A DNA stretch of 55,462 bases from a virus (lineage: Duplodnaviria; Heunggongvirae; Uroviricota; Caudoviricetes): positions 90,755 through 146,216 of IMG/VR virus record IMGVR_UViG_3300035182_000695; one strand, given 5' to 3'. Numbering within the stretch: the stretch's first letter is position 1; the number at the start of each line of letters is the position of its first letter. Shown here piece by piece: positions 369 through 34,206 of the stretch. Position numbers and translations under genes: made by a program. The notes beneath the pieces were generated by a model. That model worked only from the letters and a program-made list of their open reading frames with translations, made no database searches and was not told the DNA's origin.

Positions 369-890
369 TTATTTATTTTTAATTCTGTAAACTACATATA
401 AAGCAGCTAACGCTCCACCTACTGCGCCGTAAACTTTGTTCTTATTATCTACGCTCGTAATCCAATTTTGTTTCTCTGCAAGATAAACACCTGCAAATCC
501 AACGATACCACCAATAACAATAGCATCAATGTATTTAACTTTAGATGTTGCTGATGCGATAGTTATTTTACCTGATGTTTCTTTTCCGTCTTTCTTTACA
601 GCGTCCCCTTCTTTTTTAGGCGCACCTTCCGCTGAGCTAGTAACAGTTTCATCTACCGGATTTACAACATCTTTAGTTACAAGTTCTTTTATAACACTCA
701 AAGGAACAGCTAATGTGCCTTTAACTAATACGAAAGCAGGCTTGTTATTATCGTGCTTTAATTCGCCATTAATAACCTCTCCTTTTTTGAAGTTTTTAAA
801 ACAAATTTGTTGTGGCTTCTCAGGTCTGCCTGTAACTCTAACGTACGGTGATTTGAAGTCTTGAGTTAATATGTAACTTTTTAATGCCAT
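369..890 (-). CDS. Putative virion membrane protein with C-terminal TM hairpin
   Basis: Two Gly-rich hydrophobic helices at the C-terminus; SSAEG motif; architecture like 3898..4368. Confidence 0.7.
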   Translation of the reverse strand: MALKSYILTQDFKSPYVRVTGRPEKPQQICFKNFKKGEVINGELKHDNNKPAFVLVKGTLAVPLSVIKELVTKDVVNPVDETVTSSAEGAPKKEGDAVKKDGKETSGKITIASATSKVKYIDAIVIGGIVGFAGVYLAEKQNWITSVDNKNKVYGAVGGALAALYVVYRIKNK

Positions 891-1012: not shown

Positions 1013-1795
1013 TTATCTTGCTGGCGCAGCTCCAGGAGCGGCAGAACCAGCTTTTGATTTACTTGACTTATAAATTATAAAAGCTACAATCGCAACTCCA
1101 ATAACTATACCGCCAACAATAAGTGTTGTTTTCATTCCGCTACTCATTCCAGGCTTTTCAGCATCAACAGCATCTTTATCAATAACATCTTCTTTTTTGT
1201 AAACTACTGGCTCTCCACCGTTGTCGCCATCAATAGCTTCTGTTTGTTCAGGAGTGTATGTTTTAGATAAATCAACTTCTCCTGTTGTAGGATTTACTTG
1301 TTTTACAACTTCTCCTGATGTAGCTACATCTTTTTTATCATAAAGTGTTGGCTCAACGCCAGGTTTAGACGAAGGAACTGTATGAATTTGGTCTAAAGGA
1401 ATTTCTTTTTTAGAGCCATCAGGCATTGTTTTTTCTCCAACAGTTGTTCCGTCAGCTTTTTTCTTTTTTCTGATTTTCGGAAGAGCATCTTTAAATTTAT
1501 GCACTCCGTTTACAATCATTTTTTTCAATGGTCTTGCTCCGTATTTAGCTTTTCTTTCAGAGCGACGGGTTTCTCTTTTAGCTTTACGAGCATCCATTTT
1601 TTCTTTACTAAAAAATCCGTGATGTTCTTTTGGAGCTTTTGTATCTGTCGTAGCAGCCTTTACATCTTTACCTGTTTTAGGAGGCGTAGAAGTTGTTGAA
1701 TCTTTTTTAGATTTTGTGCTTCCTGATGCGTTTGAATATGATAATTGACCTGATTCGTTTTGAAACAAAATTGGTGCAGTTGTAGTTACTTTCAT
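1013..1795 (-). CDS. Tail-anchored putative virion membrane protein
   Basis: Basic soluble region, C-terminal TM (LIVGGIVIGVAIVAFIIY) followed by Lys; YSNASG motif. Confidence 0.7.
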   Translation of the reverse strand: MKVTTTAPILFQNESGQLSYSNASGSTKSKKDSTTSTPPKTGKDVKAATTDTKAPKEHHGFFSKEKMDARKAKRETRRSERKAKYGARPLKKMIVNGVHKFKDALPKIRKKKKADGTTVGEKTMPDGSKKEIPLDQIHTVPSSKPGVEPTLYDKKDVATSGEVVKQVNPTTGEVDLSKTYTPEQTEAIDGDNGGEPVVYKKEDVIDKDAVDAEKPGMSSGMKTTLIVGGIVIGVAIVAFIIYKSSKSKAGSAAPGAAPAR

Positions 1796-2508
1796 TTTCC
1801 TTTAGATTTTTTAATTTTATAAACAACAAATCCTAATATCGCTAATCCTACAACAATTCCACTAACTATTAATACAGTTCTTGTTGTTTTTGCTGACGCT
1901 TCTTTATCTTTTGCTTGCGCTTCTTGTTTAGCTCTTTGTTGAGCAAGTAACGCTTGTTGCATTTGCGCTTTAGCTTCTTGTTTTTTCTGAGCCATGTTAG
2001 TAGCTCCGTTCTTTTTATTACTTTGATTATCCATTGCTTTTCCGGCAACGTCTCCTCCAGTTTTAATAATACCGCTAATAGCATTCATCATTCCGCCATT
2101 GCCGAACTCAGATTGCTCTTCATAATCTTCATCTCCTTCTGCATTTTCAAACTCTTCATCATCTCCTGAGAAATGACTTTCTAATATAGAGTATGAGCTT
2201 TTAACGCCCGCATCACTAATTTCATCTTCGCCATCAAAGCCGACAGATTTATTGTGCATATTAACTAATAGCGCACTACCTAAGCGTAGTTTTTCGTTAA
2301 TGTCAATATTATCTACAAATAAATTAACAAGCTCTTGATTGCTCATTTTTTCATTTGCATAAACACTTGATTCATTAAGCAAGTCAACGAAGTCTTGTTT
2401 CGACTTAGACAAAATAGTGCCTAATTCATACATCAATAATCTACTAGCATTTTTCGTGCTATTATCATTAACGAATGAAGCTAACTTATTATGAAAATCG
2501 TTATTCAT
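1792..2508 (-). CDS. Tail-anchored coiled-coil putative virion membrane protein
   Basis: Q/A-rich helix, C-terminal TM then KIKKSKGK; VGFDG and ENAEG motifs. Confidence 0.7.
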   Translation of the reverse strand: MNNDFHNKLASFVNDNSTKNASRLLMYELGTILSKSKQDFVDLLNESSVYANEKMSNQELVNLFVDNIDINEKLRLGSALLVNMHNKSVGFDGEDEISDAGVKSSYSILESHFSGDDEEFENAEGDEDYEEQSEFGNGGMMNAISGIIKTGGDVAGKAMDNQSNKKNGATNMAQKKQEAKAQMQQALLAQQRAKQEAQAKDKEASAKTTRTVLIVSGIVVGLAILGFVVYKIKKSKGK

Positions 2509-2634
2509 TTATTTCGTGCTTTTGTATAGATGATTGTACTTAAACAAAAATAAGATGGCGTATGCTACTGCGATGCCGCCGTATGCAATCATCACCATCT
2601 TATCTTCGTTTGATATTTTACTGTTTGAAGGCAT
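2509..2634 (-). CDS. Small membrane protein (41 aa)
   Basis: Hand-translated MPSNSKISNEDKMVMIAYGGIAVAYAILFLFKY...; TAATG overlap with the upstream stop. Confidence 0.7.
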   Translation of the reverse strand: MPSNSKISNEDKMVMIAYGGIAVAYAILFLFKYNHLYKSTK

Positions 2635-3875
2635 TATTTCGCTTCAAAAACTTTGTATTTTTTTATTGCCCAAATAGCAACAGCAGCTACGCCTACACCG
2701 ATTGCAACAGCAGTCCAGTTGATTTTTTTACCAACTTTTGTAGAAGCAGCGCCGTCAGCGTTAGATGACAATTCAATTGTTCTTACAGCAGGAGCGTCAT
2801 AATCTTCAACTAAATCAAGACCGTTTAATCCTGTGCCTGTTGCATTTGAATTATCCTCTGCCGGAACTTCTATTCGTTGTTCTGACATTTGTGGATTTAA
2901 TTCATTTTCAACTGGAGTTTCAGAACCACCGTCTTCCGGATTTTTTCTTTCTTGACGATTTTCTTTTCTTAAAGAACGTCTTTCTTGACGAGCAGCACGC
3001 TTAGCTTTTCTAACTTCACGACGACGACCACCGCCTCCACCACCTCTGCGACCACCTCTGAATTCAGAGAACTCGCCGTCAGCGCCAGAAAATTCACCTT
3101 CAAAGTTAGCGTACTTTTCAAGTTGCCCTTCAAGTTCTTTAACTCTGTCGATTCGTTTATTTACTTGCGCTTTAATCTCAGCAACTTCACGCATCATTTG
3201 CGCCTTTGTTGTTTGATTAACTTCTGCTGCAATATTAGCTTCTCTTGCAATAACTTTTTGTTTCAATCTTGAAATCAATTCTTTATTCCATTCGATTTTT
3301 TTAGCAACGTCTTGTACCGCTGGCTGAACACGAACTTTACTTTCGTCATTCATTTCACTAAAGCGGTCTTCCGCTCCCATAACGCCATCAAAACCTGAAT
3401 CATCAGATTCTTGGTCATCAGAGCCTTGGTCGTCTTGAGATTGCTCGTCATAACCGCCTTGGTCATCAGAACCTTGCTCATCTTGCGACTGCTCATCATA
3501 ACCGCCTTGGTCTTGCGACTGGTCATCTCCTTGAGAAGATGCGTCATCAGAACCTTGGTCTTGAGATTGGTCGTCATCAGAACCATCATTACCCATTTCT
3601 TTTCTTGAAAGTCTGCGTCTCTTGCGGGTATCTTTTCTTGACTGTCTCGCTTCTTGCTGTTCAGAACGCATATCTTGACGAGATTTTTTTCTTGCTCTAC
3701 GTCTTGCGATTCTGTTTTGCTGACGTTCCATTCTTCTTTTGTGTCGTCTTGCACGACCACGACCTCTGAATTCAGAGAACTCGCCAAAAGCTTCCTCGAA
3801 AGTTGCTGATGAAACAGAAGTTATTCCCTTATCGCCATCCTTAATAGGAGAAAGCGTTATAATTGTTGCTTCCAT
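2634..3875 (-). CDS. Arg-rich/acidic tail-anchored protein, candidate DNA-condensing core polyprotein
   Basis: Two Arg-rich blocks each preceded by GEFSEFRG, a D/Q-rich repeat, a coiled coil and a C-terminal TM. Confidence 0.65.
   Translation of the reverse strand: MEATIITLSPIKDGDKGITSVSSATFEEAFGEFSEFRGRGRARRHKRRMERQQNRIARRRARKKSRQDMRSEQQEARQSRKDTRKRRRLSRKEMGNDGSDDDQSQDQGSDDASSQGDDQSQDQGGYDEQSQDEQGSDDQGGYDEQSQDDQGSDDQESDDSGFDGVMGAEDRFSEMNDESKVRVQPAVQDVAKKIEWNKELISRLKQKVIAREANIAAEVNQTTKAQMMREVAEIKAQVNKRIDRVKELEGQLEKYANFEGEFSGADGEFSEFRGGRRGGGGGGRRREVRKAKRAARQERRSLRKENRQERKNPEDGGSETPVENELNPQMSEQRIEVPAEDNSNATGTGLNGLDLVEDYDAPAVRTIELSSNADGAASTKVGKKINWTAVAIGVGVAAVAIWAIKKYKVFEAK
3400..3590 (-). repeat. 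Imperfect in-frame tandem repeat encoding DDQSQDQG / QGSDDQGGYDE units
   Basis: Repeated ccttggtc / gaaccttg / tcataaccgccttggtc blocks; boundaries approximate. Confidence 0.8.
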
Positions 3876-20821: not shown

Positions 20822-23170
20822 TTATTTCAACTTAGCCAATAAAGACGTTGCGATTTGTTTCCCGTTATCGTTAAACATATCTAAAGACTTCTCTACTGTG
20901 CTTTTAAGAACGTCTTTATTTCCGTATTTCAGATTACTCGCTTCAATCCAAGGTCCTGCCTTGATTACTTTATTGAACACAGAGCAAGCTAATTCAGTTT
21001 CTTCTTGATTCAATGATGAAGTCCAGTCAGAAGCGTCGCTGTTGCTTGACGTTGTGTGTCTCTTAACAAATTCAATAACTTGGTCGTTTACTTTTTTATG
21101 GTCAGGACTATTGTATGATTCGCTTTCTCTGTTTAATGTTTTAATAAACTCCTCTGCGTTAGTTCTAGTTAAAAGAACTCTATTTATAAATTCCCTAAAC
21201 TCATCTTCTCCTCCCGAATTTTCCATTTGCTCTTCAAACTCATCAGACGCACGTTTAACAACAAGCTCTCCGTTAACACTATTATAGCACATTTCGCCGT
21301 CTTTAGTTATCCAAAAATACCAATTACCAGCGTACCCTAAGTCTTCAAAGTAACCGCCTTCTGGCAATGTCATCTCACTAGATTCAACTGACTCTTCAAC
21401 TTCATTACACTCACAATGAAATACAACTTTCTTGATTGAATCATAAGGCACTTCCGGTATTTCGCTTGTATTCAAACGCTCGTTTACAGCTAGTGCTTTT
21501 AAAGTAACAACCATCTCAGCTTCGCCTTCAAAAATAAGTTTAGAGAATATTTTTTGTTCGCTAAAAACTTGCTGCTCATCTTTATTTTCTTTGAACGAAA
21601 CTATGTAAGCGAAATGCACTCCGTATATTGTTGCGCCGTTCTCATACTCCTCTCCTTTCAAGTCTTTTTTGAAATCGGAAATTCTCTCGTCAAATTGCTC
21701 TTCTGAATAATGAAAATTACCTTCGTCATCAATTACATTGAATTTAATTGCTTTCCCGTTTAGTATAGGATATGTAAAAATTCTTGGAGCTATGTAACTA
21801 TTAAGATGCTGTGGATTAAATTTCGCAACATATTTTTTCTCTAAATCTTTATACTCATTTATTTTTAACTGTATAGCATTTGCGTTAATTGTTGCCCCTT
21901 CTCCAAATGATGAAGTGCTGTGAATTACAGTATCATCGCCTTTAGCTAGTATTACTACTGTTACATCGTAAGATTTTTTAGCTTTAAAAAATACGGCCGC
22001 TTTTACTTGTGCGCTATAAGAACTGTCTGCTCTTAAATCAATTTCTTTTCCTTTATAAAATGCTTTATAAACATTTTTTCCTTCTCCTTGAATAGTCGCT
22101 CCGTGTTCGTATTTCATATTGTATGCGCCGTCAACAATCTCGTAACCTTTCGGCATTCTCCAACCTGCATCAACTTGAACGCCACGCTTGCCTTTAGAAT
22201 AAACTTTATTTTTGTCATTGCCTTTAACTACTTTGTATCCGTGAGGCATTCTATATCCTCTGATTATACGAACTCGCTTATGTGCGTTTCCACCTTTGGC
22301 ATAAGTGTCTTCTTTAATCGATATAGTTACAGTTTTTTCATTTTTTCTACTAAACTTATATCCGTCAATTGAATTTCTGTATTTTTTCTCAAAATCATCC
22401 GCAATTTTTCTTGACATAAAATTTAAGTTAATTACATTTACGCCATTACTATCGAATGTGTTTTCAATGTTTGAAAAACGAAATGAACCAAAATTACCAT
22501 GCTCTTCTTTGAACGAAAATTTAATTTTTGCTTTTGAGAAAAAATCATCAGTAGCTCCCATATTAAAAGAATGTACACCTCCACCTTTAGCATATTCATC
22601 CCAATTTGTAGAATTTTCTAACCAGTCTTCGTATGATTTAGAATTAACGAACTCTAACCAAGAATCAGAAATGTGTTCACTAGCAGCATCAGTAACATCT
22701 AAATCGTGTATGAATGCGTCTTTTTGTGATTGCGATAATTGACTCCAAATTCTAGTTGCTTCGCTATGGTCATCAGGAAAGTTTGCGTAAAGCTCTTCAA
22801 AGTCATCTTGTGAACCCCAACTAGAATCAATAACTCCGCCTTTAGCGAGCTTTACAGTTTCTTTAGCTTGAGCATTTTTGAAAAACAATGGCCATAATTT
22901 TTTAGATAACTTACTTCTCTCTTCGCTAAGTTTGTCAGATAAATATTCTTCTGCTCTGTGCTGTTCAAAAATTTCAATAGCTTTCGCAACGTCTTCTTTA
23001 GAGCCTACTGTTGAAGCATACAATACAACTAACTCAGAATTATAATTATCGTCTTCGTACTCTTCGTAAAGCTCCCAAGTTTTATTTTCTTTTATAGCTT
23101 GTTTTATTTCTGCTAAAACTCGCTTCGAGTGAGAATCTGTTTTTTTAGATGTTCTTTTTTTATTAGGCAT
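20822..23170 (-). CDS. Large multi-module (polyvalent) protein with [YF]xxG[GA] junction motifs
   Basis: LAKGG, YAKGG x2, YEHGA, FGEGA and YENGA separate small modules. Confidence 0.65.
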   Translation of the reverse strand: MPNKKRTSKKTDSHSKRVLAEIKQAIKENKTWELYEEYEDDNYNSELVVLYASTVGSKEDVAKAIEIFEQHRAEEYLSDKLSEERSKLSKKLWPLFFKNAQAKETVKLAKGGVIDSSWGSQDDFEELYANFPDDHSEATRIWSQLSQSQKDAFIHDLDVTDAASEHISDSWLEFVNSKSYEDWLENSTNWDEYAKGGGVHSFNMGATDDFFSKAKIKFSFKEEHGNFGSFRFSNIENTFDSNGVNVINLNFMSRKIADDFEKKYRNSIDGYKFSRKNEKTVTISIKEDTYAKGGNAHKRVRIIRGYRMPHGYKVVKGNDKNKVYSKGKRGVQVDAGWRMPKGYEIVDGAYNMKYEHGATIQGEGKNVYKAFYKGKEIDLRADSSYSAQVKAAVFFKAKKSYDVTVVILAKGDDTVIHSTSSFGEGATINANAIQLKINEYKDLEKKYVAKFNPQHLNSYIAPRIFTYPILNGKAIKFNVIDDEGNFHYSEEQFDERISDFKKDLKGEEYENGATIYGVHFAYIVSFKENKDEQQVFSEQKIFSKLIFEGEAEMVVTLKALAVNERLNTSEIPEVPYDSIKKVVFHCECNEVEESVESSEMTLPEGGYFEDLGYAGNWYFWITKDGEMCYNSVNGELVVKRASDEFEEQMENSGGEDEFREFINRVLLTRTNAEEFIKTLNRESESYNSPDHKKVNDQVIEFVKRHTTSSNSDASDWTSSLNQEETELACSVFNKVIKAGPWIEASNLKYGNKDVLKSTVEKSLDMFNDNGKQIATSLLAKLK

Positions 23171-23189
23171 TGTCTTGTTTTTTAAATTA

Positions 23190-24782
23190 TTATACCGCTG
23201 TTAATTCTTGTGCAATAGTTCTCATTTCGTCTGGATGACTCTGACCTGCTGCGTAAGTAGCTCTGTCTCCATCGAATGAAAATCTTTTTGCAAACCAAGC
23301 GTTTTTATATTTTTGTAACCCGTAATTGATAACAGATTTTAAACTTCTTAATTTTTTCTCACTACGAAGTCCTTTAGATAGCATTGCATACATTGAATCT
23401 CTTTGCTCTTTAGTCAATTCATCTTTTTCTAAAAGTGCGTGTAATGTTCTTTCGTTTATCGGTGTATGTGATTTTTTCTTAATAGCTTCGATAGCGTTAT
23501 TTGCTTTTTGCCAAGGCGCTGTTCCTTTTTCAAAAACATCTCTTTCTTTTTCTAAAGATTCAATTGTAGCTCCTTTAGCGTATTTTTGAATGTACGCAGC
23601 TTCTACTGTTTCGTAACCGTGAGGCAATCTCCAACCAGCATCAACTTTAACTTTCGGTTTTCCTTTCGAGTAGTTTTTATTTTTGTCATCTCCCTTAATC
23701 GCTTTATATCCTTTCGGTAAACGATGTCCTTTAGTTACAGAGACGTGTTTTTGCCCTTGAACATTGGCGCCACGCTTGTACTCTTCTGGCTCTTCATAAT
23801 CATTTATATCAAGACCTATTTGTTCGTAAGCCCACGCTTTGTTTTCGTGAGTAGTTGATGTACCCATAATGTCATCAGCTCCGAAATAAGTAAATATTTC
23901 GCCTAACTTATTAACGAAAGATTTTTTCAACCACTCTTCTTTTGAGCAACCACAAGAATCTAAAAATCCTTTGATGTCTTCTTCTTTAGCCCATTCTTCT
24001 CCGTTAATTAGTTTATCCAAAGATGATTCAAGAACGTAACCATAATTATAAGATTGCTCTCCAACTTTACTAATTACAAAGTGTTCGCCTTCTTCTGTAC
24101 AGTTTTCGTTTACAGTTGCAACAAATCCATACTCTTCAAGCGATGTCATTAGATTTACATCAGTACCCTCCCAATCGCTTTCTATTGTAGCTCCTTTAGC
24201 ATATTGCTCATAGTGATAGGCTTGTAAATATAAATCGAATAAAGAACTAGCTTGGCTCACTTTGCCGCCGCTTCCTGCGTTTCCGCCATAAGTAAATCTA
24301 AATAAGTTTTTAAAGCGATTGCTTTTTATGGCATCACACATTTCAACTAAATACTCTTTAATGAATTTATTTGATATTGTGTTTACTAATGCACAAAACT
24401 TTTCAAAGTTTGCTTTTGAAGCTTCTTTGTGTGCGATTTTTTCCATTTCAACAAATGGTTTTTCGTCAACAACTTCAACACTATTTTCAATTATTCTATC
24501 TAAAATTCCATCACGAATTAAATCGAAATCTTTTTGAGTATTCTTAGGCTCTTGCTTAGCTGTTTTCACAACGGCTCCTTTAGCATACTTTCCTGTTGCT
24601 ATATGTTTTTCAATTGCCGATTTTATATCGCTAGACAATTCATCAAAATCTTTACTTATTGCGCTTGCAATAGCAGATGTTTTTACTTCTGACTTATGGT
24701 CATTTAAAAAATGATTTTTTTGTCTGATTGTCCAAGAATCCCAAATTTCAGATGCCGAACCAGTGTATTTTTCTGTACTCAT
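23190..24782 (-). CDS. Multi-module (polyvalent) protein with [YF]xxG[GA] junction motifs
   Basis: YAKGA x3 and YKRGA; shares the GxRxPxGY module with 20822..23170. Confidence 0.65.
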   Translation of the reverse strand: MSTEKYTGSASEIWDSWTIRQKNHFLNDHKSEVKTSAIASAISKDFDELSSDIKSAIEKHIATGKYAKGAVVKTAKQEPKNTQKDFDLIRDGILDRIIENSVEVVDEKPFVEMEKIAHKEASKANFEKFCALVNTISNKFIKEYLVEMCDAIKSNRFKNLFRFTYGGNAGSGGKVSQASSLFDLYLQAYHYEQYAKGATIESDWEGTDVNLMTSLEEYGFVATVNENCTEEGEHFVISKVGEQSYNYGYVLESSLDKLINGEEWAKEEDIKGFLDSCGCSKEEWLKKSFVNKLGEIFTYFGADDIMGTSTTHENKAWAYEQIGLDINDYEEPEEYKRGANVQGQKHVSVTKGHRLPKGYKAIKGDDKNKNYSKGKPKVKVDAGWRLPHGYETVEAAYIQKYAKGATIESLEKERDVFEKGTAPWQKANNAIEAIKKKSHTPINERTLHALLEKDELTKEQRDSMYAMLSKGLRSEKKLRSLKSVINYGLQKYKNAWFAKRFSFDGDRATYAAGQSHPDEMRTIAQELTAV

Positions 24783-24812
24783 TTTATTTAATTTTAGTTG
24801 TTTATTTTTAAT

Positions 24813-25448
24813 TTACGATAACATAATCTCAGCCATATCAAAAGTGTCCTGCCACTCTTGTCTTTCTTCACTAGACAAGTCATCTGAATCTAGCATAATA
24901 GTTGCCATATCCAATTGGTCTTGCCACTCTTGTCTTTCTTGCTCAGGCGTAGCGTCTTCTACTTTGAATTTATTTGTTACTGCATCAATAACAAATTTAG
25001 GAACTTCATTTTTTAATCCGCCTAACTTAATAGCATTTTCCCATAAAATATCCGCAAGCTCATTGAACTTTTTTGTAGCATTTTCGTCTTTATGAGCGTC
25101 TGAAAAATTGTACCCTATGTACATATCAACCCACTCGAATAAAGTTGTTCCTGCGATTGTTTTCTTGTCTGCGTACAATTCTAAATAGCGTCTAACAATC
25201 CACCATTCTCTTAACTGAGCATCTACAATTATGTCTTTACATAATGCTTTAAATATTGATAAAACTAATCTATCATCTGATAGAGTTACTTTATCTTCTG
25301 CTCCGTTTTCTTTAATGAATTCGTTTAGCTTATTCATTTTAACAAGCCAAGGCTCGCCAAAATACTTTGATGTTATGTTAGGTTGTATCGCATCAACAAT
25401 TTGTGAAAATTTGAAGTCTGCTGAGTTTATTACAATTGCGTTGTTCAT
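24813..25448 (-). CDS. Hypothetical protein with duplicated C-terminal EWQ..(L/F)DMA.IML motif
   Basis: ERQEWQDQLDMATIMLDSDDLSSEERQEWQDTFDMAEIMLS. Confidence 0.65.
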   Translation of the reverse strand: MNNAIVINSADFKFSQIVDAIQPNITSKYFGEPWLVKMNKLNEFIKENGAEDKVTLSDDRLVLSIFKALCKDIIVDAQLREWWIVRRYLELYADKKTIAGTTLFEWVDMYIGYNFSDAHKDENATKKFNELADILWENAIKLGGLKNEVPKFVIDAVTNKFKVEDATPEQERQEWQDQLDMATIMLDSDDLSSEERQEWQDTFDMAEIMLS

Positions 25449-25463
25449 CGTTTTTATATTTTG

Positions 25464-28400
25464 TTATGCTAATAATTTTACTAATTCGTCAATTTTAGAA
25501 TCTAACATTTTTTCTAATTCGCCTTCAATAGATGAATCAAATGTTACTTCCTCTCCTTGTACTTGAGCAACTTCCATTTCGTCAATAAATTGTTCTAACA
25601 CATACATACTAGAAGCTTTAGAGAAGAATTCGCTACCTATCGCAAAAGACGGTCTTGATTTTCTCGCATCAAGGTCTTTGATTATAAGTATGAACTCATC
25701 AAATGTCATAATTACTCTGTTAGTCCATTCAATTGAACTGTTTCTTCCGCTTTGTAAGTCAACTACATTTGTAGGAAATATTTGTTTGAATAATAATCCA
25801 TTTCCAATATAGTATTGTTTTTTGCGGCCGTCGTTTTCAATATTCGGGAATAAATTACTCTTATTTCCTGGTTTGTAATTTTCACTATTTATGTTAACTC
25901 CTTGTTGCTGTAATAGCATTGCGAAGCCATCAGAATAATTAATACTTGTTGTAATCAACTCTACTGTTAAGTTAGAGCAGAATGTGTCGAAATCAATTTC
26001 TTCTAAATGTTTAATTCTCTTCTCGCTAGTAACAATATCTAATGTTTTGTCAAACTCTTCGATTAAATAAGAACTCGGTTTTATAATAACGCCTGAGAAT
26101 CCTATTTGACTAGATATTTGGAATAAGAATTCTATACCGCCATTACTTCTTTGAAGTCTGTGTTCCCACTTATCAACTTCTGTTGAATTTTTATGCAAGT
26201 CGTAAAGCTTGCCAAACATAAACCAATAAACATACTTAGTAATTAAGTTGTTTACATTGTTAGGGTTACCGTCAAAGTAAACAGGATATTGTAATGAGTT
26301 GTTAACAGAATAACGCTCTTCTAAAGAAGTGTAAGTTCCTTTAGTTGGATTGTTAGGGTCTATTTTATTTGTTATCTCAATTCCAATTCTTCCCTTATTG
26401 TCAGATGTAGTGTACTTAGTTATTGTTCCATTAAGTCCATTTTGTTTAGACATAATGAATGTTTTAAGTAATGTACCTGCTATGAACCATTTAGTCTCTT
26501 TGTATGAGTTGTCTTGTTTACCAGCAATATCATTCCAAACATCTTTGTAGTTAGGCGCAAAGTTTGTTAAGCTAATTGTATTTTTATAACCAAGTGCTTT
26601 TTGCTCTTCTCTTATTTTTTTATGCAATTTCGATAAAGGCAATTTGTCTTTTCTTGAAACGAATGTAAAATAAACATCAAAACTAGAAGGGGTTAAATCA
26701 TCTCCATCGTAAGGGAAAGTAACACCAGTTATAACACAAGGCTCGGAAACAACTTCTTGATAAGAAACTTTCTGAACATCAACTTGAAGCTCTCCTGTTT
26801 CGTTTTCATAATGTTTCGTTTCTTTTAATTCAGAATACATAACAACAGAACCAATTCTATTTACATAGTCTTTACAAGTTGCGTTTAGCTCGTTCCATTC
26901 TTGCATAGCTTGAGTGTAAGAAACTATTTTTGTTTTAGCTCTCTCAATATCACTCTCGATTGCTTTTATCGCTCTCGTTGTTAATCTGTGTTTTGTTTTC
27001 TCTTCTGAAATATCGCCGAATGATTCCATTTTTTTCAACAACCCTACTTGCGTTTGTTTCAATGGAGCCATTTCAGTACCGTATTTAATTAATCCGTCTG
27101 TATCTCCCGATGTTGCGCATTCGGTAATTTTATTGTTGATTTCTCTGATTTTCTCAGCGTTCTCATCCATTTGTTTTTCAATTTCAATAGCTTCTAAAAG
27201 ACTACCAAAACCAACAAGTTTTTTTCTCTCTACTGCTAACTCAGCTTCTGATTCCGCAATATCATCATTAACTTTTTTAACTGTTTCAAGTTGAGTTTTT
27301 TGTTTCGCTAAATGTTGTGCATCTAACGCTCTGTTTGCTTCTGCTTGAAACAAAGGAATAGAACTAAAGAATCTTAAATCAGATTTCTTTTTATGGTCTT
27401 CTCCATCATTTTCAGTTGAATCGCTAGCATAATCAGTTAACTTCAAATACAATCTTTCATCTATCGCTTGAGCAATTTGCTTATCGATATTTTTACTTCT
27501 GTATTGAGTTACAATTGACTCTTCAATAAATCCGTGTCTTCCAAATGAAGTTCTAGCATTTTCATCACCAATAAAGAAAGGGTATTTATTAACTAACTCA
27601 GCTTTGTAATCTTTCGATGACATTTTACCGTTATAAAGTCCTTGAGCTGTTAATCGAATAATCTCTGCGTTTAATCGCTTAGAGAATGTTTCGTAAAAAT
27701 TCTTTTGGAAATCAAAATCAGAGAAATACAATCCTTTTGTGTACTCTTTAATGTCGTTAGGATTATCTTTACCGGCTCTATCTCTTTGATTTAAGTCTTT
27801 CATTGTTTCATTGAATGGCTCTATTGCTACTGTGCTATAAAAGTCATCTGATGTAAACATATAAGAAGATTGCGTTTGCTCTGCGCTCACGTTTGCAGAT
27901 AAAGAACGAAGTTTACGTTCCATTAATGCTGTTAATCTAGCTTCTGACGGAATTGCAGATATAATGTAAAAGAACTCAGGTTGATAAACTTGTCCTGTTC
28001 TATTGATACGACCTAATTTTTGAACTTCTTTGCTAATATCCAACTCCATTTGAGTAATAATCATAGCACGCTTTTTAACTTCTGATTTATCTTTCAGAGT
28101 CAATGGCGCATTTTCGATTGTTACTTCTTTTCCGTTTTCATCAACAACTGTTGTAGGCTCGTAAACTTTATGTGCAATAGCGTTCGGTACTGCGTGCATG
28201 GAAATACCAACAGCTCCACTTTGATTGATTAATAAACAATCAATTTTGTTTTCGTTAAACTCCCTTACTAATGTTGTTGTTGGTTTAATATCTCTTTTAG
28301 CAATAACACCTTTAGAGAAATCGTTTCCTGAGAACTCAACACATAACTGTCTTCCAGTAATTTCATTTACGGAATAACCAGCGTCTTTTATTTTACGCTT

Positions 28401-30947
28401 AATCTCATCGATAGGCGCAATAGAAACTCCGGTTGTTGTATCTAATATTTCAGTAAGCAATGCTTTGTATCTAACAAGTAAAGCATCTCTTATTTCTTCC
28501 GATAATGGGTGTTTGTCGCCAAGAACAAAAATTGTTTTTTCAACTTCTGTTTTAGTTCCATCAGATTCTACTTGCTCAACAACTCTGTTCCATCTTAACG
28601 TATAATTTAATAAGTAAGCTATGTATAATTTGAAATCGTTTTCAATTTCATCTCCAACTCTATACTTATCAGTATCATCTTTACCATCACTTAAAAATGT
28701 TTTTGACATATTGTTAAGCGCCGACTCCATTGTATTAGCGACAGTAATAACAGTTTTTTTACCGCTATTCAATTTGTCAAGTGAGAAGCCAACTGTTTGT
28801 TGAACTTTTAAACCAAGTAAGAAAAAGTTGAACATTTGGAATGTCAGAGCTTTAATAGTTCTTGACTTATTAATCTCATCTTTCGAGCCTTCTAATTTAT
28901 CTCCGTTTTCAGCTCTTGTTGGTAAATCTTCTTTATATTCTTTAACAATATCGTGAACAGAAACTTGAAAATCTCTTATTTTAGAAAATAAATCAGCAAC
29001 TTTATTCATTCTTAATCGTTGTTGAACACCAACAGGGTCAGACTCTTCATCTTTAGCATAATAGTACTCAGATTTACCTTCAATTTTTTTCTCACGTCTT
29101 AACAACTGTCCGTTTCTTGTTAATTCAACAGATACAGCTTCTTGTAACGCCGTCTCTCCTTCTAAGAAAGCCATAATCATTTCAACATCAGATAAGCCAG
29201 ACTCACGCATACTCGTTTTCATTGCGTATAAAGGCATATTAGATGCTCTCTTAGCATAAGTAGCTGACAAGTAAGTAGTCATTGCACTACTCTTGATTAT
29301 TTGAGATAAAATGAAGAATGTATTTGATGGTTTTCCAGGTTCGCCGCCACTAGCAGTATGACTTTCATCAAGTATAACAACGCTATTGTTTGCGTATTTT
29401 AAATACAATTTAATTCCTGGTTTCAAGAATTGTTTTCCAGCTTTTTTTGAAGAGTATGGTGATTTTGTTTGACTATAAGGAATAGTAAACAACTTGTATT
29501 TGCTAGGTAAATTTAATGCAGACGGAGAAACTTCCCAATCCGGCTCAAGCTTCATTCCAACTTTTTTGTACGCTAAAATAGTTTTCATTTCAGCGTCAGT
29601 CATTCTACCGTAAAGAATATTACCGTTTATATCAACGATGTCGCCTCTGTTAGGGAAATAAGGCTCGACAATTATTTTACCTTCTGTTTGTGCGTGTAAA
29701 ACTTGCTCAGCGTAATTCATATTTTTCTCGAAAGAATCTTTTGAATAACCCTCTTCTGTAAATTTCATTCTGTACAATTCAATTAACTCATCCATTACGG
29801 TCAAAATTTGCTCGTAATTTTTATCAGCTTCATTGTGTACGTTTCTAAGCCACTCAATCTCGAAGTTATCAGCGAAGTCATACTCCACACGAACATCTCC
29901 GTCGTCTTTGATGTCTTTCAAAATAATTTTCACTAACTCTTCGTCAGTAAATTCAGTTTTGGTTGAAGTTACATTTTTCTTGAATTCTTGAGGAATACCC
30001 GCATCAAATCCAATTGCAATTAAATCTCTGTAAATATCGTTTATTAAATGTTTCTTCTCTGTGAAAAAGAATGGAATAACATTTAATTCTAAATACGCAT
30101 ATCTTATTAATCCGGCTGCTTGTCTACCTTTACCAACGCCTGTTTGGTCAGCAATGATAATCGCATCTCCTTTTTCTTCGTAGTTAAATATGGCCGTTGC
30201 AATTGCATCAATTTGTTCTTGAGCAAAACGAACAATTTGCTTTCTATCTTTTAATAAATTTCTCCAATCTGGACTAGAGTAGTCAACGGTTTCAGGACCG
30301 TAGCATAAATCATCAACTGATTTGTAGTGTAGTTTTTTTGCTACATACTGTTCAACAGTCATTCCGTATTTATCTAATAAGAATGATTTTAAATTTTGAT
30401 TGAATCGTCTTTGCTCATTAGCCATTGAAGACGGAACGTGAGTGTCAAGCGATATGCAAATATCAGAAGATGCTGGATAATATTTCGTTTGGATTTCGCC
30501 ATCCGTATTACCGCCGTCTTCAAATTTCTCAGGCTCGTTAAGATACATATTTAATTTATCAATAACAGCGTCTTGAGTTTTAGCTTTAAAGCGTCTTAAC
30601 TTAGGCAAAGAACCTGCAATTTTTTCAACAGTACCGTTTTTATATAAGCTAATCTTAGCATATCTCGAATTGTTAACGATTCCGTTTTTCCACTCATCTG
30701 GTTTATCCATAGATAAAGTAATAGACACAGAAACATTTTCATTTCCACCTAAAGTAGAAAAGCTACACGAAACATACGGTGCTTTTATTTCAGATTTTAT
30801 TTTTTCAACGAAATCTTTAACGCTATCTATATTGAAAACCTCGCCTACATTTCCGCCGGTCTCTTGTTTATCAATACAGCCACCACCGCAAAACAATTCC
30901 GGTTGTTCTTTGTAAAATTTAGAATCACTATTCTCCATTTTTTTCAT
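25464..30947 (-). CDS. Strawberry-notch-like SF2 helicase, large polyvalent protein
   Basis: IIIADQTGVGKGR (Walker A), VVILDESH (Walker B), YLSATYAKR, LLINQSGAVGISMHA, QKLGRINRTGQ. Confidence 0.8.
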   Translation of the reverse strand: MKKMENSDSKFYKEQPELFCGGGCIDKQETGGNVGEVFNIDSVKDFVEKIKSEIKAPYVSCSFSTLGGNENVSVSITLSMDKPDEWKNGIVNNSRYAKISLYKNGTVEKIAGSLPKLRRFKAKTQDAVIDKLNMYLNEPEKFEDGGNTDGEIQTKYYPASSDICISLDTHVPSSMANEQRRFNQNLKSFLLDKYGMTVEQYVAKKLHYKSVDDLCYGPETVDYSSPDWRNLLKDRKQIVRFAQEQIDAIATAIFNYEEKGDAIIIADQTGVGKGRQAAGLIRYAYLELNVIPFFFTEKKHLINDIYRDLIAIGFDAGIPQEFKKNVTSTKTEFTDEELVKIILKDIKDDGDVRVEYDFADNFEIEWLRNVHNEADKNYEQILTVMDELIELYRMKFTEEGYSKDSFEKNMNYAEQVLHAQTEGKIIVEPYFPNRGDIVDINGNILYGRMTDAEMKTILAYKKVGMKLEPDWEVSPSALNLPSKYKLFTIPYSQTKSPYSSKKAGKQFLKPGIKLYLKYANNSVVILDESHTASGGEPGKPSNTFFILSQIIKSSAMTTYLSATYAKRASNMPLYAMKTSMRESGLSDVEMIMAFLEGETALQEAVSVELTRNGQLLRREKKIEGKSEYYYAKDEESDPVGVQQRLRMNKVADLFSKIRDFQVSVHDIVKEYKEDLPTRAENGDKLEGSKDEINKSRTIKALTFQMFNFFLLGLKVQQTVGFSLDKLNSGKKTVITVANTMESALNNMSKTFLSDGKDDTDKYRVGDEIENDFKLYIAYLLNYTLRWNRVVEQVESDGTKTEVEKTIFVLGDKHPLSEEIRDALLVRYKALLTEILDTTTGVSIAPIDEIKRKIKDAGYSVNEITGRQLCVEFSGNDFSKGVIAKRDIKPTTTLVREFNENKIDCLLINQSGAVGISMHAVPNAIAHKVYEPTTVVDENGKEVTIENAPLTLKDKSEVKKRAMIITQMELDISKEVQKLGRINRTGQVYQPEFFYIISAIPSEARLTALMERKLRSLSANVSAEQTQSSYMFTSDDFYSTVAIEPFNETMKDLNQRDRAGKDNPNDIKEYTKGLYFSDFDFQKNFYETFSKRLNAEIIRLTAQGLYNGKMSSKDYKAELVNKYPFFIGDENARTSFGRHGFIEESIVTQYRSKNIDKQIAQAIDERLYLKLTDYASDSTENDGEDHKKKSDLRFFSSIPLFQAEANRALDAQHLAKQKTQLETVKKVNDDIAESEAELAVERKKLVGFGSLLEAIEIEKQMDENAEKIREINNKITECATSGDTDGLIKYGTEMAPLKQTQVGLLKKMESFGDISEEKTKHRLTTRAIKAIESDIERAKTKIVSYTQAMQEWNELNATCKDYVNRIGSVVMYSELKETKHYENETGELQVDVQKVSYQEVVSEPCVITGVTFPYDGDDLTPSSFDVYFTFVSRKDKLPLSKLHKKIREEQKALGYKNTISLTNFAPNYKDVWNDIAGKQDNSYKETKWFIAGTLLKTFIMSKQNGLNGTITKYTTSDNKGRIGIEITNKIDPNNPTKGTYTSLEERYSVNNSLQYPVYFDGNPNNVNNLITKYVYWFMFGKLYDLHKNSTEVDKWEHRLQRSNGGIEFLFQISSQIGFSGVIIKPSSYLIEEFDKTLDIVTSEKRIKHLEEIDFDTFCSNLTVELITTSINYSDGFAMLLQQQGVNINSENYKPGNKSNLFPNIENDGRKKQYYIGNGLLFKQIFPTNVVDLQSGRNSSIEWTNRVIMTFDEFILIIKDLDARKSRPSFAIGSEFFSKASSMYVLEQFIDEMEVAQVQGEEVTFDSSIEGELEKMLDSKIDELVKLLA

Positions 30948-30957
30948 TTTTAAATTA

Positions 30958-30970
30958 TCCTACAAATATA
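30958..30970 (-). promoter_or_regulatory. Bacteroidota -7 promoter box (TATATTTGTAGGA)
   Basis: 13-mer identical to 18314-18326; just upstream of the helicase start. Confidence 0.6.
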
Positions 30971-31019
30971 ACATAATTACTTTTAATAAATCACTAAAGT
31001 TGAACTTCATCGATTTTTT

Positions 31020-31682
31020 TTATAAGGTGTTTTCAACAATTACGGGTTTATCACATTTCACACATTTTACTGCAAAATTCATAAAATTACCATAGGCTTT
31101 GTGTCCGCAATTAAAGCACTCGTATCTATAATTCTTGAAAGATTCTTTATAATTCGCTCCTTCATAGTATCTTGAGCAACCGCCGGCACTACCTCTGATT
31201 GCTGAGCAAACTAAACCCCAAACTTTACCGTGTCCTTGAGTTGAAAAATGCTCAGAATCTACTGCTTTCAAATCTCTTTGCGAAAACGAATTGCTAGGAC
31301 TAAATATCTCGAAAACTATTGCGTGCGCTATCTCGTGTAGAATAACACCATCCATTTGTTTTTTCCAGTTCTCATCGTGTTTAACAAAATCGATAGATAT
31401 GAATATGTTTTTAGTCTTCGATAGTGCCACTTGGTCTAGCGATGCGTTGCAAAGTCCAGCCCACTCCTTAGAAGTTCCAAATTGAAATCTCCATCCTCGA
31501 TTGTAAAGATTCATTTCTTTTATGTTCTGAATATAAGGCTGTAACGCTTTAATATCTTTTATGCTATCGTAGTAATCAACAGCGATAAGTTTGTGTCCCG
31601 CATCAAATGTTTCTTCGACGTTCTCGGAATCTATTTTTTGTTTTGGCAGCTGAAAGCTTCCCATTAAATCATCAAAACTCAT
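31020..31682 (-). CDS. SprT-like Zn metalloprotease with C-terminal zinc ribbon
   Basis: VILHEIAHA, GHGKVW, CFNC...CVKC. Confidence 0.8.
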   Translation of the reverse strand: MSFDDLMGSFQLPKQKIDSENVEETFDAGHKLIAVDYYDSIKDIKALQPYIQNIKEMNLYNRGWRFQFGTSKEWAGLCNASLDQVALSKTKNIFISIDFVKHDENWKKQMDGVILHEIAHAIVFEIFSPSNSFSQRDLKAVDSEHFSTQGHGKVWGLVCSAIRGSAGGCSRYYEGANYKESFKNYRYECFNCGHKAYGNFMNFAVKCVKCDKPVIVENTL

Positions 31683-31692
31683 TTTTTTTATT

Positions 31693-34206
31693 TTAAATTT
31701 CTAACATCATCTTCGCTGTTTCTAACTGCGACAGCCATTCGCTTTTTTCTTCTGCTGAAATATCTGAATCAAGCATCATTTGCGCCGTTTCAAGAACTTC
31801 TTGCCATTCTTTATTTATTTCTTCTTGAGTTGTTTCTTTTTTCACCTGTGCAACAATTTTGTTTTTTCTAACAACTTGTTTGCTTTCTGATAAAGGAATC
31901 CAAAACTCATTATGCTTTCTTTCATAGCTAACATATATGTCAACTGTATTAGAATTCAATTTGCTTAATCTCTGCTTTAACTTAGTTGCACTTCCGATAT
32001 ATATACCTCTAGTTGTATCAAGTTGCTTAGGCTCGCTTAAATCGTGTATTTTATACATTCCTTTAAGCACTTCTCCGCCTATCATAATTTGATTTCCAAC
32101 TATGTGTATTGTCTTGTTTCCTTTTTTATCAATATTTGTCAAATCGGATAAATAAAACTCGATTATTTTACTTGACATTTTAGGAAGTGTTCCTTCAATG
32201 AATGGATATTTAGATGAAGACTTTGTTACAATCATATCAAACTCGTACCCGCTAATTGAACACATTTCGTTATCTGATTTTATAACTAATGGCTGCTCGT
32301 CAAAAGCTGCTAGAATTTTCGCAACAACTTTAGGACTTTCCATTGTTATAACATATCTCTCAACACTCGACTCTACTGTTATTTCATTCTTATACAAGCA
32401 TTGTGCATCTGTGCCTATAACTTGCATTTTATTTTCGGTAAATGTAAAGTTTGCGCAATTAAACGCAGGTCTGAAATCATCTCTTTCAATGAATAGGTTT
32501 GCATAATTCAATTGATATAAGAAGCTCCCCGAATCTACTACTGCAATTGATTTAGATTCTTTTGATAACGGTTTTATTCTCGGATAGCTATCTACATCAA
32601 CATCTGATTTTCTTAAATAGCCATCTAAATAAAAATAAGTTCCGTTTTCTATTTGTTTTGAAACTGGCATTGATACTTGAACATTATTATCTGTAATGTA
32701 TAAATTACCGTCCTCAATTAATGCGCAGTCTAGTATATAAGAGCCTGTATTTTTCTCAGTAAATATTTTAACTACGCTGATTGTTTTTTCGTTTATGTAC
32801 TCTGGATAAAAATCTTTCGGTTGATATTCTTTAACTATCGAATCATCTGCATTATGTATCTCACTATCTTTTAAATCAAAGTAACAAGAATTACTAACAG
32901 AACCGTCAATCTCTCTAGCGCCAACGAAATCGTCGTATGCCATAACAGGCATTTGAAGAATTAATATGGAATCTTTTTTGTTAAATGCCGTGTGCGGCTT
33001 ATCTGCCACAGCGGCATCAGGCGAAATTATAACCGCTCTGCTTGCGCTATCAGAAAGACCGAAGTAAGCAACAGTTTCATTTAAAGATATTAGCGTCTCG
33101 CAAATGTCAATTAAAAATAATGAATTGAATGCGTAAATTTTATCTCTACCGTATGCTAACTGAACGTGAAAGTTACTTTTATTTACATAGTTTTGACAAG
33201 CTGCTAAATAAGTGTATAGCTTGTTTATGTCTATCTCGCAAACAATATCAGACTTAGTTGGAACGACAGCTTGATAGTTTGGATAATTTCCGTCAATCAA
33301 TCCTTTTTTTGTCTTCTTAATCTCTTCTGTTCTTGCGTGTTTTGACAATGGATAAATACCTCTAATAGAATGCTTGCCTTGCTTAAAAAATAATCTATGA
33401 GCGTCAGTTGCAGTAATACCAAACTCATCAAAATAAGTGCCCGACATTACAGGTCTAAGAGAATCTCCGCCTGTGAATATGTCAGATATTTTTTGAATTG
33501 CTTTGTCTTGCGGATTTAATGAGTGAATTTTTATAGTAGAAATGTTTTTTGTTTTTTTCCATATCTCAGGAATCTCGCTCCACTTTGTAACTATTGCGTT
33601 ATCTAAGTTTGTAGATTTTAATTCTTGCGTTTTAAAATCCCCTCCTTTTGAAAACTGAGGAGTGAACTCATTTAGTTGGCATTTACCTTGAGATAGCTCA
33701 GAATGAGCGGCGCCGTTTAAAAGCCAATTACACTTGCCTTGTTCGTTTTTAGTCCCCCAATGATTCGCTTGTCTTATAACAGAATCGCTTTCATACCAAT
33801 ACTTACTACCTGATTCAGAAACATAGTCAGGCTTCTTTTCAGGAACATTATCAATTGATTTAAAGTTTGCAGATGTGTTTACATGAAAATTATCAAAACT
33901 AATTTTGTCTATCGTTGCACCCTTTTCAAATTGAGGCTCGTGAATGGGCGCTCCGCCGCCAGCACTTTGGTTTATTTCATTTAATTTTCGCCAATGTTTC
34001 TTTGCTGCGTGTTTATTTATAATCACCTCCCCGTTTTCCACTAAAATCGGTCTTTTATCTTCAATCACAATAGCTTTAATTCCACCGCCTTCGTCTGAAT
34101 GAGCTTTTCCAATTAATAACCCGCCGCTACTAGCATCTTTACTAATTTTTAATTGGCTTCCGTTTTTAGATGTGTCTATAACACCATCAGTTTTATAATT
34201 TTCCAT
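31693..34206 (-). CDS. Polyvalent protein containing DnaN/beta-clamp-like repeats
   Basis: LRPVMSG..TATDAHRL..GNYPNY and FRPAFNC..GTDAQCL; N-terminal modules bounded by FEKGA and FSKGG. Confidence 0.65.
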   Translation of the reverse strand: MENYKTDGVIDTSKNGSQLKISKDASSGGLLIGKAHSDEGGGIKAIVIEDKRPILVENGEVIINKHAAKKHWRKLNEINQSAGGGAPIHEPQFEKGATIDKISFDNFHVNTSANFKSIDNVPEKKPDYVSESGSKYWYESDSVIRQANHWGTKNEQGKCNWLLNGAAHSELSQGKCQLNEFTPQFSKGGDFKTQELKSTNLDNAIVTKWSEIPEIWKKTKNISTIKIHSLNPQDKAIQKISDIFTGGDSLRPVMSGTYFDEFGITATDAHRLFFKQGKHSIRGIYPLSKHARTEEIKKTKKGLIDGNYPNYQAVVPTKSDIVCEIDINKLYTYLAACQNYVNKSNFHVQLAYGRDKIYAFNSLFLIDICETLISLNETVAYFGLSDSASRAVIISPDAAVADKPHTAFNKKDSILILQMPVMAYDDFVGAREIDGSVSNSCYFDLKDSEIHNADDSIVKEYQPKDFYPEYINEKTISVVKIFTEKNTGSYILDCALIEDGNLYITDNNVQVSMPVSKQIENGTYFYLDGYLRKSDVDVDSYPRIKPLSKESKSIAVVDSGSFLYQLNYANLFIERDDFRPAFNCANFTFTENKMQVIGTDAQCLYKNEITVESSVERYVITMESPKVVAKILAAFDEQPLVIKSDNEMCSISGYEFDMIVTKSSSKYPFIEGTLPKMSSKIIEFYLSDLTNIDKKGNKTIHIVGNQIMIGGEVLKGMYKIHDLSEPKQLDTTRGIYIGSATKLKQRLSKLNSNTVDIYVSYERKHNEFWIPLSESKQVVRKNKIVAQVKKETTQEEINKEWQEVLETAQMMLDSDISAEEKSEWLSQLETAKMMLEI

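Follow-up and report, generated by a model that had tools for sequence, protein, structure and literature searches.

How does a virus put to use a single polypeptide chain that carries many unrelated activities? The question is raised by four large genes, P0001 to P0004, which lie between positions 20822 and 34206 of the stretch of DNA analysed here. This stretch (the window) is 55,462 nucleotides long and lies at the very end of one virus record of 146,216 bp, IMG/VR IMGVR_UViG_3300035182_000695, which is ~74% complete by estimate. The products of the four genes are punctuated by a short peptide of the form [YF]-x-x-G-[GA], termed the connector below. The original prediction, made from the nucleotide sequence without database searches, held that this motif marks module edges in the four genes; homology breakpoints, cases of gene fission and fusion, and the Pfam boundaries of a protein in the related locus L003 all agree with this. 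Comparison among relatives shows the connector as a junction element, at which modules are gained, lost, swapped or split into separate genes. Proteins of this polyvalent type are thought to equip viruses and plasmids with several tools at once for disarming the cell that they enter, and the connector bears on how such a chain is put to use.

Every motif listed in the original prediction is present on the minus strand in the gene to which it was assigned, with nucleotide coordinates verified, and the remark that GA variants are often followed by TI holds for six of the eight GA copies. The features of P0001 and P0002 are as follows (L numbers denote loci and contigs used in the comparison; aa, amino acids).

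20822..23170, minus strand: P0001, 782 aa, modular, with six connectors; its conserved C-terminal domain (...ATSLLAKLK) is also found in the protein at the same position in relatives
22835..22849, minus strand: LAKGG connector, P0001 residues 108-112, just before a module that P0001 shares with L021 and P0013
22580..22594, minus strand: YAKGG connector, P0001 193-197
22289..22303, minus strand: YAKGG connector, P0001 290-294, upstream flank of module A
22112..22288, minus strand: module A copy of P0001, ~60 aa, a doubled G[YW]R[LM]PxGY hairpin-like unit
22097..22111, minus strand: YEHGA connector, P0001 354-358, downstream flank of module A
21893..21907, minus strand: FGEGA connector, P0001 422-426, at the end of a module that P0001 shares with P0013
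21632..21646, minus strand: YENGA connector, P0001 509-513
23190..24782, minus strand: P0002, 530 aa, modular, with four clear connectors
24573..24587, minus strand: YAKGA connector, P0002 66-70, closing a confidently modelled helical domain (residues 10-62)
24189..24203, minus strand: YAKGA connector, P0002 194-198
23766..23780, minus strand: YKRGA connector, P0002 335-339, upstream flank of module A
23583..23765, minus strand: module A copy of P0002
23568..23582, minus strand: YAKGA connector, P0002 401-405, downstream flank of module A

What lies between the connectors? P0001 consists of at least six modules and P0002 of at least five, with no mutual similarity apart from module A. No Pfam or PHROG family matched either protein or its modules, and a Pfam and PHROG scan of ten large relatives and of individual modules likewise found no family. 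Homologues of P0002 are mosaics in which segment families delimited by the motif are reordered, for example C-F-J-B-K-A-L versus C-J-F-A-A. Internal homology breakpoints fall within 12 residues of a motif in 77% of cases for P0001 and 85% for P0002, against 20-22% at random (P=0.006 and 0.002), breakpoint endpoints being here not independent of one another and dominated by module A. The latter is a basic unit of 60-65 aa built on a doubled G-[YW]-R-[LM]-P-x-G-Y element, and it is flanked by the motif in both P0001 and P0002. It is 60-70% identical across otherwise unrelated proteins, yet no more than 43 clusters out of 1.84 billion representatives contain it; an ESM Atlas search with it gave no usable match. 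A nucleic-acid-binding role for module A is a guess. The proposed comparison of AlphaFold domain boundaries with motif positions was made for P0002: the AlphaFold2 model is confident only at residues 10-62 and 82-160, and the motifs at 66 and 163 sit in confidence dips, the rest of the model being poor (mean predicted local distance difference test, pLDDT, 52). Pfam and homology boundaries agree with a motif placed between folded units.

The evidence from gene fission and fusion involves the other two large genes and the two smaller ones beside them.

31693..34206, minus strand: P0004, 837 aa, two N-terminal modules, then a sliding-clamp-like region
33931..34206, minus strand: N-terminal module of P0004, which also opens a 151-aa two-module gene of L016
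33916..33930, minus strand: FEKGA connector, P0004 93-97; FKRGG, FKKGG, FASGG, FEKGG or FKSGG in relatives
33640..33654, minus strand: FSKGG connector, P0004 185-189, ahead of the clamp-like region; no orthologue to compare
31020..31682, minus strand: SprT-like zincin with zinc ribbon, 220 aa, whose gene immediately precedes the helicase in all related loci seen; an unproven candidate for the processing enzyme
25464..30947, minus strand: P0003, 1827 aa, Strawberry-notch-type helicase (Pfam AAA_34 and Helicase_C_4) with N-terminal accessory modules
30852..30893, minus strand: FCGGG and degenerate QETGG connectors of P0003 (ETGG at residue 28), after a conserved N-terminal leader; the L013 equivalents are FSEGG and YENGA
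30525..30851, minus strand: N-terminal accessory module of the helicase, matching phrog_3308, an 88-position and thus module-sized profile
30510..30524, minus strand: FEDGG connector, P0003 142-146, directly ahead of the helicase core; YEDGG, YEEGA or MAEGA in orthologues
24813..25448, minus strand: 211-aa gene, standalone in the window and in L013, fused behind YEQGA or YEDGA in L003 and L004, respectively

The 211-aa gene corresponds to the C-terminal part of a 717-aa protein in L003, where it is joined through YEQGA, and of a 409-aa protein in L004, where the joint is YEDGA. In the L003 protein the motifs at residues 363 and 483 lie between an ART-PolyVal domain (198-354), a DUF3140 domain (378-472) and the 211-aa-like domain (498-715). 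In seven of seven further loci, the gene upstream of the SprT-like gene begins with the N-terminal module of P0004; F-x-x-G-G comes next, followed by variable modules. A helicase core preceded by FEDGG, YEDGG, YEEGA or MAEGA is found in the window and in six orthologues, L031 being the exception, and the part upstream of it varies from 23 to ~400 residues among orthologues. The L031 orthologue (L031:10642-16098) has the same N-terminal accessory module and no canonical connector in a pattern scan, and might serve as a natural 'connector-less' control. Within P0004, the PDYVSESGSKYWY...NHWG stretch is bracketed by FEKGA at 93 and FSKGG at 185, and residues 537-677 match PHROG profiles for DNA polymerase processivity factor; the 220-aa protein matches the SprT-like family in a Pfam scan. 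The products of the 211-aa gene and of P0004 carry tandem E-W-x-x-x-L-x-x-A-x-x-M-L tags at their C-termini (window 24813-25448 and 31693-31800), and the fused relatives in L003 and L004 share this ending (...EKWQGL..FAEMMME...LYEFCELMLEK).

Two kinds of relatives were found; freshwater samples such as JGI 3300031758 and 3300032050 contain relatives. Window-type loci (L003, L004, L010, L012, L013, L015, L016 and L025-L031) share one gene order: the N-module gene comes first, then the SprT-like gene, the helicase and the 211-aa-like domain, then a modular protein that ends, like P0001, in the ...ATS..KLK domain, and last the 166-aa gene and the packaging-ATPase block. The connector genes thus lie beside the packaging-ATPase module in all relatives, which is a positional hint at delivery together with the DNA. 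In the window itself, the minus-strand order of transcription is a 286-aa gene with helix-turn-helix and TnsA-N-like features, P0004, SprT-like, P0003, the 211-aa gene, P0002, P0001 and the 166-aa gene. The second kind, the GGL-type contigs (L001, L002, L005, L008, L009, L011 and L021), have one to four genes with 4-16 connectors each, whose products all end in Y-[ESQT]-I-G-G-L, preceded by [CF] and followed by the stop. The L001 genes of this type are part of the structural block, flanked on one side by the homologue of window 369-890 and on the other by a conserved 262-aa protein. Many GGL-type proteins (L001:5307-15705; L005, L008, L009, L011, L021) start with a leader of 4-15 residues, with a connector directly after it. 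The 146-kb genome has no GGL-ended proteins, and the back-translated CYEIGGL-stop tail had no match in IMG/VR. In another virus, five polyvalent genes in a row precede a 1672-aa AAA_34/Helicase_C_4 helicase, so that a helicase of the Strawberry-notch type is found beside such arrays more than once. When P0001, P0002, the P0004 N-module and the ART-PolyVal/DUF3140 region were run by tblastn against GenBank phages, the outcome was no match or three weak ones, so that no cultured model phage can be named.

Is the connector part of the modules that it flanks? The ends of DUF3140 are informative. In L027 and L031 the domain ends in ...IWGHNPEK and a stop; where a module follows, the sequence reads ...IWGHNP-x-K-YEQGA. 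A search with the ART-PolyVal/DUF3140 region in a collection of 5.8 billion proteins returned 1152 proteins, and the best 120 were analysed. These bring together numerous Pfam families (GNAT, Zeta toxin, methylases, NUDIX, ParB and others) and are therefore classical polyvalent proteins. In the 120 proteins the motif occurs 682 times, where 113 occurrences are expected. Among their internal DUF3140 ends, 69 of 77 have the motif within 14 residues and five more have another x-x-G-G, against a baseline of 6.8%, whereas all ten terminal ends (10/10) reach a stop codon within a few residues and carry no motif. Where module A is N-terminal, the upstream motif is absent. Since free module ends lack the motif, the connector is not part of the modules; these comparisons show that it is present only where another module follows.

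The enrichment test put forward in the original prediction is positive, by count, for two of the four genes. P0001 and P0002 together have 11 copies of [YF]xxG[GA], where 1.04 are expected, and 11 or more were reached in 0 of 20,000 shuffles; P0003 and P0004, with two copies each, are not enriched by count alone (P=0.27 and 0.064). Genome-wide there are 36 matches in the 46,125 residues encoded by the 146-kb record, the density being 8.4 per 1000 aa in P0001 and P0002 versus 0.5 per 1000 aa outside the four genes, a ~17-fold difference. Despite the unremarkable count, the FCGGG/ETGG, FEDGG and FEKGA copies of P0003 and P0004 are kept in orthologues. With a position matrix trained solely on the unrelated GGL-type proteins of other contigs, 11 sites in the whole proteome score at or above the cut-off of 9 bits, and nine of them are in P0001-P0003, including FEDGG, QETGG and LAKGG. 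The connector logo is [ED]-[KE]-[YF]-[AEK]-x-G-[GA]-x-[VIM]; Met is sometimes found in the aromatic position and Ser or Thr in the fifth.

Not every match to the pattern is a connector. FNMGA (P0001 202) and FTYGG (P0002 163) are doubtful, and two matches that orthologues do not keep, YEDGG of the 166-aa gene and YYEGA of the SprT-like gene, were set aside as chance. A possible further site is that of a membrane-anchored protein of the structural block (window 1792-2508), which scores 19 bits on the connector matrix (..EFGNGGMM..) and whose L001 orthologue has MALGA at a comparable place. A 525-aa protein in L023 (6532-8109) is rich in Arg/Lys in its N-terminal half, carries about a dozen YDDGG repeats in tandem, has a membrane helix at its C-terminus and resembles the protamine-like membrane protein at window 2634-3875. 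Its YDDGG run was rejected as a module connector and is a low-complexity acidic tract instead.

The cargo-like nature of the proteins, also part of the original prediction, is upheld by the ART-PolyVal and DUF3140 domains that relatives carry between the same motifs, by the Strawberry-notch helicase and by the shuffling of modules among genomes. As judged from their predicted domains, the four genes encode modular proteins of the polyvalent type, a concept introduced for phages and conjugative elements, for which a processing that frees the domains was proposed (Iyer, Burroughs, Anand, de Souza and Aravind, 2017, PMC5512222). Several unrelated domains per polypeptide are present in P0001 and P0002; P0003 joins accessory modules to a helicase and P0004 two modules to a clamp-like region; and domain architectures shuffle between related elements. 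The Strawberry-notch helicase is the only hallmark polyvalent domain recognized in the window itself, ART-PolyVal and DUF3140 being found in the syntenic genes of relatives. The likeness to the published proteins extends to multi-module viral mosaics, a SWI2/SNF2 helicase of the Strawberry-notch type, the ART-PolyVal and DUF3140 domains that relatives carry in their versions of these genes, and a zincin nearby. The difference is that the zincin here is a separate SprT-like gene and not an in-chain MPTase-PolyVal domain, for which the 146-kb record gave no Pfam match. A text search of PMC5512222 and the other literature searched gave no description of the connector motif, and a full-text search for the pentapeptides returned unrelated papers only. 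The GA-TI variant, the presence of a connector only if a module follows, the fission and fusion cases and the GGL-ended class in the structural block are additions of this analysis.

Does selection act on the peptide or on the DNA? In the window the motif codons vary freely, with synonymous changes, and orthologous junctions swap Y, F and M, as well as G and A, with the pattern kept; it is therefore the peptide that is under selection, and a DNA-level repeat was rejected as the explanation for the window motif since its codons vary. Connector codon bias is slight or absent in L003, L010 and L032. It is strong in L001:5307-15705, where TAC is used for 21 of 28 Tyr (background 0.32) and GGT for 33 of 35 first Gly (background 0.42); at these connectors Gly-Gly is written GGT GGT and a third Gly GGG. 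The L001 bias could stem from gene conversion or cassette exchange, or from selection for accurate translation of critical residues.

What, then, might the connector do? The reading that we favour, tentatively and at somewhat less than an even chance, is that it is a site of limited proteolysis at which modules are released. Self-contained modules of ~50-200 residues, in two cases together with a large core (the helicase and the clamp-like region), are strung together by one connector, which an enzyme acting in trans would recognize, freeing the modules from each other and from constant carrier domains. Packaging of the precursors into the particle and delivery with the genome are suggested by the known biology of the family and by the position of the relatives' genes inside the structural block. 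Cleavage is favoured because of the sequence-specific conservation with small central residues, the short leaders before the first connector (4-23 residues) and precedent; small residues at the Gly-Gly/Ala position are typical of viral processing sites.

Which enzyme could be responsible? Only two protease candidates were seen: the SprT-like zincin, whose gene keeps its place beside that of the helicase in all window-type loci, and a conserved M48-like zincin of the structural module.

Genome 89536-90333 (L020:11537-12334), minus strand, 421 bases before the window start: P0023, 265 aa, in the structural block

P0023 has 1174 relatives, all of ~262 aa, with an invariant HExxH...NExGAD and no Pfam family. 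Its model (pLDDT 89.7) has an N-terminal beta-sandwich and a helical domain, and the latter aligns with the M48 peptidase BepA over 116 residues at 15% identity with a VIA Z score of 8.0, near the level that VIA itself calls common, so that the M48-like assignment is carried mainly by the invariant residues. With Foldseek, the model matched no PDB entry at E<=0.001. P0023 belongs to the core genes of the lineage and is present also where no large connector-rich gene adjoins, and hence is not specifically tied to the motif; it may be the maturation protease of the lineage. When the SprT-like protein was modelled in complex with module A and both its connectors, the score was 0.01, which is no answer and evidence neither way.

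Several observations weigh against cleavage. A SprT-like gene was not seen within 10 kb of the connector-rich proteins in the neighbourhoods of two other viruses, so that no protease common to all connector users was identified. None of the 120 connector-using ART-PolyVal/DUF3140 proteins (0/120) has a Pfam peptidase domain, and the 146-kb record gave no match to the Pfam models for C5 (adenain), C48 (Ulp1), C57 (poxvirus), C39, M23 or MPTase-PolyVal, with a cut-off of E<=1 for C5, C48 and C57, where divergent enzymes could escape the models and the record is ~74% complete. In relatives, connectors lie as close as 4 residues to the N-terminus or 1 residue to the C-terminus, which is awkward for a pure module-release site. 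The L001 bias in Tyr and Gly codons would fit a function of the motif as DNA or during translation. Some polyvalent proteins stay intact, e.g. the N4 vRNAP and ArdC (as cited in PMC5512222).

In the main rival reading the connector is not cut at all. It might be a structured-turn hinge and an in-frame junction for cassette exchange that insulates modules in proteins acting as intact chains, a possibility that we consider only slightly less probable than cleavage. Gain, loss and reordering of modules exactly at the motif would follow naturally, as would one connector in more than a thousand proteins of many viruses (1152 retrieved, the best 120 analysed) for which no common protease was found; the strong L001 codon bias and the unprocessed polyvalent proteins cited in PMC5512222 fit as well. 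Yet motif codons are not kept in the window, L003, L010 and L032, and homology-driven exchange therefore cannot explain retention of the motif here. Moreover, a plain flexible linker needs no fixed aromatic-x-x-G-G-x-aliphatic pattern, and a leader of 4-23 residues followed by a connector has no obvious use as a hinge.

Protein-level, sequence-specific conservation would also suit a docking tag bound by a viral or host partner, for instance for loading into the particle, with repeats raising avidity, and the GGL-type proteins, with their conserved Y-[ESQT]-I-G-G-L ends and genes inside the structural block, would be in keeping with this. A loading tag needs no downstream neighbour, however, and the motif is absent at free module ends in window-type proteins; no partner was identified either, and docking appears decidedly improbable. 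Could the motif be nothing but the conserved end of one repeated domain, or an effect of chance or composition? The occurrence of module A in both P0001 and P0002 with motifs on both sides is what homologous modules would give, but most modules have no detectable mutual similarity and they include different Pfam families and the helicase core, whereas chance is contradicted by the shuffles, none of which reached the observed count, and by the independent position matrix, which picks the same sites. Both explanations were rejected, and the probability left to them is negligible. Limited proteolysis, tentatively preferred, and the uncut hinge are both open to direct work, as the connector is a concrete peptide for cleavage, binding or hinge tests. 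With it, the boundaries of modules can be read off a sequence even when a 'dark' protein matches no family, and it shows the sites of module exchange between viruses.

How does the connector compare with known systems? Gly-Gly-directed processing is carried out by the adenovirus protease adenain at (M/L/I)-x-G-G↓x, in African swine fever virus polyproteins at G-G↓x and by the poxvirus protease I7 at A-G↓x. The likeness lies in a hydrophobic residue followed by Gly-Gly or Gly-Ala, repeated in precursors of viruses with jelly-roll capsids and A32-type packaging ATPases. The differences are that the aromatic residue is here one position further from Gly-Gly, that no clan CE cysteine protease is recognized here by Pfam models, and that the connector is also found in proteins of other metagenomic viral contigs. 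The internal proteins of phage T4, with their capsid-targeting leader, the inner-body proteins of phiKZ and the Dar proteins of P1 resemble the present case in having a short conserved site in several proteins that travel with the genome, and short N-terminal leaders before the first site. Their sites, however, have Glu or other residues at the end, and a known prohead protease cuts them, whereas neither such a protease nor a head-tail module is known here.

For the GGL-type relatives only, polyubiquitin and the precursors of ubiquitin-like proteins offer a parallel, with head-to-tail modules that end in Gly-Gly and one extra residue after the last. The modules here are unrelated to each other and to ubiquitin, and genes for conjugation or deubiquitinase were not seen, so that the parallel is one of analogy only. 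A bolder speculation, which we regard as unlikely, is that the connector is the site of a dedicated Gly-Gly-directed processing common to tailed phages and this lineage, which would cut effector arrays into single modules after delivery; GGL-type modules would be left with a ubiquitin-like free ...Gly-Gly end, the final Leu being trimmed as in ubiquitin-like precursors. The junctions of polymorphic toxins (VENN of CdiA and PxxxxDPxGL of Rhs) serve recombination and, in Rhs, cleavage, and like the connector they are short peptides between swappable cassettes and a constant carrier. The connector differs from them in that many cassettes are present per chain, the constant domains are mostly C-terminal and the setting is viral.

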